Origin: a virus
DNA: 64,000 nt
IMG/VR virus record: IMGVR_UViG_3300008448_000033
Location: 1-64,000 of that record
Direction: 5' to 3' (one strand)
Below are positions 44,927 to 52,043 of this stretch, in pieces. The notes beneath the pieces were generated by a model that saw nothing but the letters and a program-made list of their open reading frames with translations, did no database searches and was not told the DNA's origin. The translations under genes and the position numbers were made by a program. Numbering within the stretch: position 1 is the stretch's first letter; every line of letters begins with the position of its first letter.

Positions 44927-45620
44927 TTTTTACTTCGTTATAAGCCTTAATTGTTTCTGGATATTTCTCTTCCAAAATCTTTAGCATTGCTTCGGCTACA
45001 CGTTGAATTTCCCATTGTGCGCCTTCATGTGAGCGTAATTCAATAAACTTTAAAATATTGTTAAGGTTTGCACTTGCATAATATTCTGTATACATATTCT
45101 GCGGTAAAATACCTCTTGCTTGCTCTCGACAAACTCCCTTACGCATCATTTCTTCATAAAGAAAAACAGCAGCCAAATGATGATCGCGGATAGCTCTTGA
45201 TGCAGATACTTCACCAACTTCGTAAACAACAGGATCAATCATATTACCTTCGTTACTAGCTTGGCGATTTTTTTCATGTTGAGTTCTAAATGTCATTGGT
45301 TCGTAAAATTCTAGATTCTCTGCTGTATAACGGCGAGAGATTTCATTATAGCTCCAAGTACGATGACGATGATGCTGTGAACGAATAAATAACGGAACTT
45401 TTACACGAAACGTAATGAAACAATGCTCTAGTGTGCTTGTATGCTTATGTTTAATAAGGTAGCGAATTAGTTTACGGTCCTTATCATCTAATTCAGACTT
45501 ATGAACCCCAAACGATACGCGAGCAGAGTTAACAACAGTGAGGTCTGAGCCAACTGCATCAACAAGTTCAACTTTTCCAATTCCATCTCCATATAATTCA
45601 ATACTAGTCATTCGGTACAA
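44919..45620 (-). CDS. thyX: flavin-dependent thymidylate synthase
   Basis: HTSTLEH, RHRTWSYNEISRRY, REQARGILP, LRSHEGAQWEI. Confidence 0.95.
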   Translation of the reverse strand: MYRMTSIELYGDGIGKVELVDAVGSDLTVVNSARVSFGVHKSELDDKDRKLIRYLIKHKHTSTLEHCFITFRVKVPLFIRSQHHRHRTWSYNEISRRYTAENLEFYEPMTFRTQHEKNRQASNEGNMIDPVVYEVGEVSASRAIRDHHLAAVFLYEEMMRKGVCREQARGILPQNMYTEYYASANLNNILKFIELRSHEGAQWEIQRVAEAMLKILEEKYPETIKAYNEVKNG

Positions 45621-49736: not shown

Positions 49737-50709
49737 TCATTATCCTCTTTAGGTTCATATAAAGCTCTTCAAAGTTACTCTCGCCAAAGCCATCTGTCAA
49801 CATCATTTTTTGTATTTCAATTTTGTTGAAAGTGCATTCACTATTTTCTAGAGCATAATTTATTTTATGTACATCTTGAATAGATAAATTTGAAGAATAC
49901 AGTTGCATTAAACTGTAATTTAATTTGATTTTTTTTTCTTGATCTACAATATTATCAAAGGCTTTTGCTTTTCCTTTATTTTCTCTAGAAAAAGAAATAA
50001 TGTCGTCTATGTAATAAGTTTTTTCCTCTGATAGAAATGGAAACCTTTTTGCAACAGTCGGCAAGCCTACACCGTCAACACCATCAATATTGTCCGATGT
50101 GTCTCCAGACAAAGCTCTAGCTAAACAGAAATTATTTGGGTGTATTTTATACTCTTCTAAAATTCTTTTTGTATTAAGAATCTCTTTCTGCACAGGTCTA
50201 TAAAGAATTGTATTTTTATTACACAACTGTATAAAATCTTTGTCGCTTGAGACAATAACTTTTTGATAATCTTTTAGTTCTTGCTTATAAACAAGTGCAG
50301 AAATAATGTCGTCTGCTTCAACGCCATCAAACATTAATTGTATAATTGGCATCTGATTAAGATATTCAACTAATCTTAGCATTTGCCAGACTTTATTTTT
50401 TAATTCTTCATTTTCGTCTAAATTCCTAATATTTCTGTTTAGACGTAACGGCTTACGACCATCTTTGTATTCTTTATAAGATAGTTTTTTCTTTCGTGAA
50501 CCGCCAGTTCCATCCCAACAAATAATAACTCTATTTGGATTAACTTCTCTTATAAGTTTTTGTAAAATCTTTAAAAATCCTTTAATTCCACCAATTGGTT
50601 CGCCATTATTTGATAAGCTTGGATCTACTATAAATGCTCTAAAGTAGTTATTATTACCATCAATTATTAGAAGCTTCTTCTTTTCTTGACTTGACGAGTT
50701 CTCGCTCAT
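49723..50709 (-). CDS. 5'-3' exonuclease / flap endonuclease
   Basis: IIDGNN, YKDGR, EADDII, SSDKDF, GDTSDNIDGVDGVG. Confidence 0.92.
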   Translation of the reverse strand: MSENSSSQEKKKLLIIDGNNNYFRAFIVDPSLSNNGEPIGGIKGFLKILQKLIREVNPNRVIICWDGTGGSRKKKLSYKEYKDGRKPLRLNRNIRNLDENEELKNKVWQMLRLVEYLNQMPIIQLMFDGVEADDIISALVYKQELKDYQKVIVSSDKDFIQLCNKNTILYRPVQKEILNTKRILEEYKIHPNNFCLARALSGDTSDNIDGVDGVGLPTVAKRFPFLSEEKTYYIDDIISFSRENKGKAKAFDNIVDQEKKIKLNYSLMQLYSSNLSIQDVHKINYALENSECTFNKIEIQKMMLTDGFGESNFEELYMNLKRIMNENC

Positions 50710-51076
50710 GACGCTCTACCTCTGCAACACAGCTAAATAATTCTTTAGTTGCATCGCCAATAAATGGACCGTCATAACCGCTGTTGCGGAGCCTTTTAGC
50801 AACATAGAAAAGACGGTACAAAACGTCATTATACCTGTCTAAGTCTTTAAAGTTCACAAGAAGCTTATTGTATTTTTCACGAAGTTCTTCTAGGTCTTCT
50901 GATAGCCGATCTGCCATATCTGATTCTGATTGGACGATCATGGTCATATAAGTTGCGCGTTCTTTTAGCGTAGTTGGGATTTCATCACCTTTACCATCCA
51001 CAAGACTACCAGCTTTTAAAATTTCTTTAGCCTCTTCTATTTCTGCTTTAAGCTTTTCTAATTCTGTATTAATCAT
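50660..51076 (-). CDS. hypothetical coiled-coil protein
   Basis: ORF in operon. Confidence 0.5.
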   Translation of the reverse strand: MINTELEKLKAEIEEAKEILKAGSLVDGKGDEIPTTLKERATYMTMIVQSESDMADRLSEDLEELREKYNKLLVNFKDLDRYNDVLYRLFYVAKRLRNSGYDGPFIGDATKELFSCVAEVERHERELVKSRKEEASNN

Positions 51077-51511
51077 AATTTATAGGTTCCTATGGTTTCA
51101 CTATCAACAGTATAATAAACTTTTGAAATACCACGCTCCTTAAGGATCTCATGGCACATAACACAAGGCTTGCTCATACGGTCTTCATGCTTTCCCTTGC
51201 TTGCACGGGCAACATAAACTATAGCACCTTTAGTCTGTGCGCGAGGGATATTAAGAATCGCTTTAATTTCTGCATGATAAGTAGAAAGACCCTTCTCTTC
51301 GGGACGATACTTCGCGCCAATAGAAGAATACTTCTCAGAATTAATTCCGAAGTTAATGATAGCACCGCCCCGAACAAGCACAGCGCCATGACGAAAGTTG
51401 CCATAGGTAGAACACTCTGCCATCTTCTTAGCTAACTGAAAGATACCTCCGCACGCTCTTGGAACAATCCTTCTTGCTGATTAAGGTCTGCTGGTTGTCG
51501 TTGGTCTTCAT
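51073..51511 (-). CDS. zinc-dependent cytidine/dCMP deaminase-like protein, split by a +1 frameshift at 51442-51439
   Basis: HGAVLV, HAE, PCVMC in 51073..51423; upstream frame from ATG 51511 (GGAGG SD) supplies the N-terminal helix RRYL|QLAKKMA. Confidence 0.75.
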
Positions 51512-52043
51512 TTATTGCCTCCGTTGATGATTCACTATACTGCTGAACTAATTCTTGTTCAAGTTCTTTCTTAACCGACTTTGCATCGTGATCATAAAAT
51601 TCTTTATACCATTTTTGATCTCTTGCGGTTTTTTTAGAATGACAGTTGGCACAACGGACAACACACTTCTTTATTTCTTTTTCTAAGGTTTTAACTGTGG
51701 TTCTACCAGATACCATTTTAGAAACGTCTTTGTGTTTATCACCAGTTACATGATCTAGCTGTAAAACAAATGGATCTTTTTCTCCGCAATCTATACAGGG
51801 ATGTTGAAGATAATATTTAAACACATATTTTCTTCCAATAAATCGTCTGTAATCGTCTTTTACGCGACTACAAACTTTACAAAAGTTTTTTGATTTAAAC
51901 TTTTCTCGCTCACCGATAGCATTACAATTTTTACAAGTAAACAAGATTTCTTGTTGTACTGGTCCAAACAACTCTAATTGTTCATCCATGTAAACCTCAT
52001 TAATTTTTGATACCAAACTTTTCTCTAATATCAAGTAGAGCAA
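51432..52043 (-). CDS. HNH endonuclease
   Basis: PCIDCGE...LQLDH...CVVRCANCH; start probably 51989. Confidence 0.85.
   Translation of the reverse strand: MLYLILEKSLVSKINEVYMDEQLELFGPVQQEILFTCKNCNAIGEREKFKSKNFCKVCSRVKDDYRRFIGRKYVFKYYLQHPCIDCGEKDPFVLQLDHVTGDKHKDVSKMVSGRTTVKTLEKEIKKCVVRCANCHSKKTARDQKWYKEFYDHDAKSVKKELEQELVQQYSESSTEAINEDQRQPADLNQQEGLFQERAEVSFS

Follow-up and report, generated by a model that had tools for sequence, protein, structure and literature searches.

A zinc deaminase gene split between two reading frames lies on the minus strand, at 51073-51522, of a 64-kb stretch of DNA from an uncultured freshwater phage (hereafter the window; positions 1 to 64,000 of the 85.6-kb IMG/VR virus record IMGVR_UViG_3300008448_000033). 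From comparison with related genes, we propose that the full-length enzyme requires a +1 ribosomal frameshift like that of the bacterial gene prfB, stimulated by an internal Shine-Dalgarno (SD) element and taking place with a sense codon in the ribosomal A site; we put the probability of this reading at about 0.85. Dozens of diverged relatives keep the same break in the same gene, which makes it very probably a matter of deliberate recoding rather than of error.

Conservation of the frame break and its shift site

The cassette is laid out as a preliminary description of this DNA had it, with a leader SD GGAGG (51522-51518), a 6-nucleotide (nt) spacer, ATG 51511 and a shift site at 51442-51439 (Table 1). 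In relatives, the counterpart of the leader SD reads GGAGG, GGAGGA or AAGGAG. Translation of the first open reading frame (ORF1, 27 codons from ATG 51511) gives MKTNDNQQTLISKKDCSKSVRRYLSVS*, with the stop codon TAA at 51430-51428, and the last conserved codons of this leader, CGG AGG TAT CTT, occupy 51451-51440. Read from CAG 51438-51436, the second frame (ORF2) encodes QLAKKMAECS...YHAE...KPCVMC...YKL, and skipping T51439 joins the two frames into a product of 145 amino acids (aa) in total. Upstream of the site, the +1 frame is blocked by TAA at 51483-51481 and holds no ATG, GTG or TTG ahead of 51423. When both strands of the window were scanned, the pattern GGAGG-N3-CTY-Y occurred only once.

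An assembly indel at 51439-51442, a concern raised at the outset, was not borne out. Logan contigs from four runs in four studies (freshwater, lake and so-called fungus metagenomes) span these positions with no gaps and no differences, and contigs of diverged strains from the same runs likewise have no indel at the site.

The same break recurs among relatives. It is present in six of the seven nearest viral loci fetched with the 116-aa protein that gene callers predict here, and in a wider scan with the family alignment, which returned 80 loci, 26 of the 27 closest are broken at the same place; the remaining 53 (≤52% identity) are all in frame, read ...RRYM-ELAKR... or ...QRYL-DLA..., and lack GGAGG. 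Among the metagenome loci that could be classified, 17 of 20 are broken alike, the three in-frame ones being L153 and the more distant L170 and L171. Pooling viral and metagenome contigs gave a set of 38 distinct frame-broken nucleotide sequences, which underlies the statements on conservation that follow. All 38 carry GGAGG, three bases (TAT, TTT or TTA), CTT or CTC, one extra pyrimidine, and then CAG or AAG, so that the frame break and SD-CTTT motif first seen in the window are kept by every broken relative in the form GGAGG-N3-CT(T/C)-(T/C). The spacing of 3 nt between the SD and CTY is fixed throughout the relatives. The segment CGGAGGTATCTT is almost invariant across the set, synonymous positions included, and although CGG and AGG are the least-used Arg codons of the phage (4% and 9%), it is from these two that GGAGG is built.

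Both frames are under selection, and third-position variability changes frame exactly at the site. Upstream of it, column entropy in the 38 sequences is highest at the third codon position of the leader frame (0.64, 0.73 and 1.19 for the three positions); downstream, the maximum lies at the third position of the +1 frame (0.57, 0.40 and 1.13). The leader peptide M(D/K)xDxxQ..SKKxRRYL, which takes the form MDNDGPQE..SKKxRRYL in most relatives, is kept, and it is the N-terminus of uninterrupted homologs. These homologs, 145-149 aa long, read ...RRYL-Q-LAKK..., identical to the predicted +1 product. The +1 shift at CTT_T behind an internal SD that the preliminary description had put forward is thus strongly supported by comparative evidence.

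Two in-frame relatives show what becomes of the SD once the frame is restored. In L001, the A of TCAG has been lost, the protein reads RRYL-S-LAKK and the SD site is now CGAAGG; in L153, the extra pyrimidine is absent, the protein reads RRYL-Q-LAKK and the SD site is now GGAGA. These are two different repairs of the frame, each with a different synonymous change in GGAGG, whereas all 38 broken sequences keep GGAGG. The link between frame restoration and SD loss is drawn from these two loci only, and a scan of viral contigs for the in-frame pattern RRYLQLAKK returned no matches. The single-frame members of the prfB family, which have no frameshift, lose their SD likewise (PMC12421855).

Public protein databases hold the same signature in disguise. 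The 96 public homologs comprise at least 34 clusters with a spurious N-terminal stretch ending in GG(I/Y/F)F-QLAKK, 13 that are uninterrupted at 145-149 aa, and many more that are cut at an internal Met. The GG(I/Y/F)F-QLAKK starts arise where gene callers translate the SD and shift site in the +1 frame. The exact 16-mer CGGAGGTATCTTYCAG, when searched for in viral contigs, turned up in 64, of which 22 carry this deaminase; in the other 42 it lies in ordinary ORFs that read through, often in related contig families, a distribution compatible with chance, and no second gene family using the cassette was found among the 64.

Table 1 Features of the deaminase cassette and the overlapping neighbour, in window coordinates
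Feature	Coordinates	Strand	Remarks
Leader SD GGAGG	51518..51522	-	Read directly; 6-nt spacer to ATG 51511
ORF1, frame 0 (leader)	51428..51511	-	24 sense codons to CTT, then SVS and stop TAA
Internal SD-like GGAGG within CGG AGG, presumed frameshift stimulator	51446..51450	-	Invariant in 38/38 distinct frame-broken sequences
3-nt spacer, E-site codon TAT	51443..51445	-	TAT in most relatives; TTT or TTA in some
Shift site CTT_T	51439..51442	-	P-site Leu CTT 51442-51440 and skipped T 51439; CTT_T, CTT_C or CTC_C in relatives
0-frame A-site codon TCA (Ser)	51437..51439	-	Position of UGA in prfB; TCA, CCA or CAA in relatives
ORF2, +1 frame, body of zinc deaminase with cytidine deaminase (CDA) fold	51073..51438	-	121 codons and stop 51075-51073
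Internal ATG, start of 116-aa deaminase for gene callers	51421..51423	-	Probably Met30 of the full protein
HNH endonuclease ORF, third frame	51432..51989	-	phrog_2255, E 1.4e-24, residues 14-149 of 185

The predicted deaminase and its pathway

The zinc-binding and catalytic motifs HAE (YHAEIKAI) and PCxxC (KPCVMCH) lie in ORF2 and are invariant in the homolog alignments. When PF00383 was compared with the 116-aa ORF, the match began only at profile position 17, and this ORF therefore lacks the first helix of the fold. ORF2 scores 47.7 bits and an in-frame relative 55.8 bits (cut-off 25), and in in-frame homologs the Pfam domain starts at residue 18. An AlphaFold2 model of the in-frame relative L153, built with 19 homologs, is coherent, with a mean predicted local distance difference test score (pLDDT) of 90.5; it places a strand at residues 9-12 and a helix at 18-32 that spans the junction at 24/25. 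The earlier proposal that the shift restores an N-terminal helix agrees with both the domain start and the model, and in this model-based view the complete CDA fold, N-terminal helix included, would be present only in the frameshift product.

We consider the enzyme to be, most likely, a predicted dCMP deaminase that feeds the phage's own ThyX. Foldseek searches with the L153 model returned dCMP deaminases as best matches (template modelling score about 0.6). Against the Protein Data Bank (PDB), the family profile matched the dCMP deaminase of cyanophage S-TIM5 first (4p9c, E 9.6e-9), in an alignment that begins at RRYL, followed by T4 Cd and the Streptococcus mutans and human dCMP deaminases, with TadA-type enzymes at about 1e-4; a single-sequence phmmer search of the PDB gave no match, dCMP deaminases being reached by the profile search only. 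PHROGs labels the family dCMP deaminase. The region had no match to isolated phages by blastn, and the best protein relatives from isolated phages, actinophage dCMP deaminases, are 35-37% identical and uninterrupted. No solved structure or isolated phage comes closer than about 37% identity. A ThyX gene (PF02511, 165 bits) lies at 44955-45569 on the same strand as the deaminase, no ThyA is found in the 85.6-kb record, and UvdE and a flap endonuclease are neighbours of the deaminase. Since ThyX is present, ThyA is absent and these are the neighbours, a role from dCMP to dUMP to dTMP would be coherent for this phage of 36% GC.

Proposed mechanism and competing explanations

In the mechanism that we propose, ribosomes would initiate at ATG 51511, which a normal SD precedes, and read 24 codons. 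Once CUU (Leu24) occupies the P site and UAU the E site, the 16S rRNA anti-SD would base-pair with the internal GGAGG, which ends 3 nt ahead of CUU, and this short-spaced pairing would weaken P-site pairing, as in prfB. The peptidyl-tRNA-Leu would then slip by +1 from CUU to UUU (UUC in many relatives), CAG (Gln) would be decoded next, and 121 further codons would yield the 145-aa CDA-fold zinc deaminase. Ribosomes that do not shift would read UCA, stop three codons later and release a 27-aa peptide. A fixed shift efficiency would keep the dose of deaminase low relative to the neighbouring genes. With an ordinary sense codon in the A site, the shift probably senses neither a release factor nor a scarce tRNA, and the cassette is probably a fixed-ratio attenuator that sets a low deaminase level rather than a tRNA-gated switch.

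Several observations accord with this scheme. An SD core stands upstream of 31 of the 58 phage ORFs, against a background of 7.7%; host ribosomes therefore use anti-SD pairing and should pair with the internal GGAGG. The extra base after CTT is always a pyrimidine, consistent with re-pairing of tRNA-Leu(GAG) to UUU or UUC. As expected for this class of frameshift, RNAalifold revealed no RNA structure shared by the 38 sequences 3′ of the site; the window's own fold is unremarkable (z -0.8 and +1.0).

The closest known counterpart is prfB. In E. coli prfB (SD-like AGGGGG, CUU_UGA_C), as here, a short ORF1 (25 codons in E. coli, 24 here) precedes a main body in the +1 frame, and a purine-rich internal SD is separated by exactly 3 nt from a CUU Leu codon with U after it. 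The E-site codon of E. coli prfB is UAU, as in the phage cassette. Where prfB has UGA in the A site and then C, the phage family has a sense codon (UCA, CCA or CAA) and then G, and there is therefore no release-factor sensing and no evident product feedback. The phage family also tolerates CUU_C and CUC_C at the shift codon, unlike prfB, and its product is an enzyme of nucleotide metabolism, whereas prfB encodes release factor 2 (RF2) and is autoregulatory. The internal SD, the 3-nt spacing and the slippery CUU_U that make up the prfB signal (PMC5009743; PMC12421855) are thus all present, and the UGA-C sensed by RF2 is absent; judged by sequence, the element would work like prfB without being an RF2-sensing site. 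In RECODE, all +1 cases with CUU followed by a stop codon are prfB (PRFect paper, PMC10885494).

Other systems share single traits. At the yeast sites of Ty1, ABP140 and EST3 (CUU_AGG_C, CUU_AGU_U), too, peptidyl-tRNA-Leu slips by +1 from CUU while the A site holds a sense codon (PMC5009743); their A-site codon is rare and slow and they have no SD stimulator, in contrast to the A-site codons of the phage family, which are common by phage usage, and its invariant SD. The Bacillus subtilis gene cdd, which likewise encodes a CDA-fold deaminase, has a frameshift with an associated SD at A_CGA_AAG (PMC5009743). In cdd the direction is -1 and the site is close to the gene end; the shift is described as incidental and merely extends the protein, whereas the shift in the phage deaminase is +1, lies near the gene start and would be obligatory for a complete enzyme. 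The dCMP deaminases of S-TIM5 (4p9c), T4 (Cd, 1vq2) and Streptomyces and Rhodococcus phages have the same CDA fold and the same HAE and PCxxC motifs, and, unlike the gene studied here, theirs are uninterrupted. Our literature searches found no published report of a frameshift in a phage deaminase gene, and the Atkins review (PMC5009743) has only the incidental -1 shift of B. subtilis cdd.

The textbook +1 machinery of bacterial prfB (SD-3 nt-CUU_U) would thus serve a different gene here, in phages and with a sense codon in the A site. The family amounts to a natural allelic series, with the shift sites CUU_U, CUU_C and CUC_C, the A-site codons UCA, CCA and CAA, and revertants in which the frame is restored and the SD then lost; it lets one test what share of prfB-type shifting is due to the SD and the P-site tRNA alone. 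Public annotations are wrong in dozens of the family's protein clusters, and annotation pipelines should join the two frames. The mis-called entries among clusters P0007-P0088 are either truncations of 116-126 aa from an internal Met or proteins of 131-146 aa with GGIF-type N-termini. The source names of the family's public entries also differ, being dCMP deaminase in some and TadA in others.

Some points weigh against a prfB-like shift at this site. A simple P-site slip cannot fully explain the five relatives with CTC_C sites (L084, L092, L094, L098 and L099, each with GGAGG TTA CTC C (C/A)AG at about 1480-1500), where, with CUC in the P site, the tRNA-Leu would match the +1 codon UCC at only two of three positions. 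Such poor re-pairing points to the SD as the main driver, and these loci may shift with no re-pairing at all, in the manner of Ty3 or antizyme sites. From reporter work in E. coli, a sense A-site codon is expected to give less efficient prfB-type shifting than UGA. The 0-frame stop of the window, like that of some relatives, precedes the in-frame ATG (51423 in the window) by 4 nt, making an additional 116-aa product by reinitiation possible. No RNA run is listed as holding the stretch with the shift site. Finally, repeated reversion to the in-frame state, described below, shows that the shift is dispensable.

A sensor in place of a fixed-ratio attenuator is a doubtful proposition: the efficiency of shifting would then track anti-SD availability or the state of elongation during infection. 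If so, the condition of the host's translation apparatus would time or dose deaminase output, and gating of potentially mutagenic or pool-distorting deaminases by +1 frameshifting would be a recurrent viral strategy.

The preliminary description had gone further in another direction. It read UCA as a rare, hungry codon whose slow decoding, together with the supply of phage tRNA-Leu(UAA) for the TTA two codons on, sets the shift rate, so that the deaminase tracks tRNA availability. This part of the interpretation found no support, unlike the frameshift and the N-terminal helix, and we consider it unlikely. Although a slow A site generally helps +1 shifts, as at Ty1 CUU_AGG_C (PMC5009743), TCA is common in the phage, where it makes up 15.7 of every 1000 codons (27th of 61) and 24% of those for Ser, and it is used in frame inside the deaminase gene itself. 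In relatives, the A site holds CCA (54% of phage Pro codons) or CAA (76% of Gln codons), both of them preferred codons of the phage; by phage usage, then, the site has no rare, slow A-site codon of the Ty1 kind. The phage tRNA cluster does include Leu(UAA), but TTA is just one of the Leu codons that follow the shift in relatives, the others being CTG, CTA, CTT, CTC and TTG, and none of the eight phage tRNAs reads CUU, UCA, CCA or CAG. These codon counts are those of the phage and the host's may differ, which leaves room for a host-side effect. A scan of genome contigs gave only Methylobacterium genes, 23-29% identical, and so no clue to the host. By the neighbouring flap endonuclease, the nearest isolates are a Microcystis phage (38.7%) and some Flavobacterium phages (35%), and at this distance they do not point to a host either. 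As a separate observation on the phage tRNA cluster, ARAGORN called a 90-nt tRNA-Ile(UAU) within it at 11975-12064 on the minus strand, with the anticodon at position 31, an atypical geometry.

Two separate cistrons, with the leader as an upstream ORF and the 116-aa deaminase made from ATG 51423 by termination-reinitiation and without any frameshift, are highly improbable. The arrangement invites the idea, with the leader stop at 51430-51428 just 4 nt upstream of that ATG, a 0-frame stop that overlaps the ATG region in L002 and L003, and 116-aa proteins annotated by gene callers. In L005-L007 and many other relatives, however, the ATG is replaced by CTC (Leu) and the +1 frame has no start before QLAKK, so the enzyme there cannot arise by independent initiation, without a shift. 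Moreover, QLAKK, which lies ahead of the ATG, is kept at the protein level in the +1 frame, in-frame homologs are continuous, and the 116-aa form is without Pfam profile positions 1-16 and most of helix 18-32. Two cistrons would also leave the invariant GGAGG-N3-CTY unexplained.

Other forms of recoding would reach the same frame, namely quadruplet decoding of UCAG or CCAG (RRYL-S/P-LAKK), a -2 shift (RRYLFQLAKK) or transcriptional slippage. The junction residue cannot be fixed from sequence alone, and L001 and P0002 read RRYL-S-LAKK in frame, which equals a quadruplet reading of TCAG; in most in-frame relatives, by contrast, Q stands at the junction and no residue is added. Among the eight phage tRNAs, none with an enlarged anticodon loop for these words was found, the T-run is just 2-3 long and too short for polymerase slippage, and the invariant SD at prfB spacing favours the prfB route, so we give these alternatives very little credence. 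A dead gene or a sequencing artefact is refuted to near certainty, for although a one-base break in a short pyrimidine run is a common assembly error, four runs agree on the site and the break is common to 38 distinct sequences with purifying selection on either side.

Evolution and surroundings of the cassette

The tree, built from 111 core sequences and 121 columns, leaves many forks unresolved. It groups all 75 frame-broken rows in a single clade of 90 (Shimodaira-Hasegawa approximate likelihood-ratio support 98), with in-frame lineages outside. The 15 in-frame rows of this clade are scattered within it; parsimony counts 14 changes, of which at least 5 are forced by well-supported branches. 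One origin of the break followed by repeated reversion is the simplest reading. The in-frame outgroups L100 and L122 already encode (Q/R)RYL as ...AGG TAT CTT, which put the RRYL codons a single step away from a signal like that of prfB; the insertion of one base after CTT could from the outset have been tolerable. That the broken form dominates after deep divergence, though a single-base deletion would revert it, suggests, without proving, that the shift is favoured.

The deaminase gene is overlapped by other ORFs on both sides. The C-terminal tail of the HNH endonuclease ORF, a neighbour that stands outside the cassette and is placed between UvdE and the deaminase, overlaps the entire leader and shift site, and all three forward frames are open over about 51432-51480. 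This ORF, on which the preliminary description was silent, looks like a mobile-endonuclease insertion, since the relative L004 has three small ORFs in its place. We also considered whether the HNH ORF is joined to the deaminase in a -1 fusion, and set the idea aside because relatives are without an HNH gene at that place. At the other end, the stop codon of the deaminase and the start codon of the ORF that follows it share the sequence ATGA (51073-51076, minus strand). That ORF, at 50660-51076, encodes 138 aa and belongs to no Pfam or PHROG family; the ATGA overlap implies that its protein is coupled in translation to frameshifted ribosomes only.

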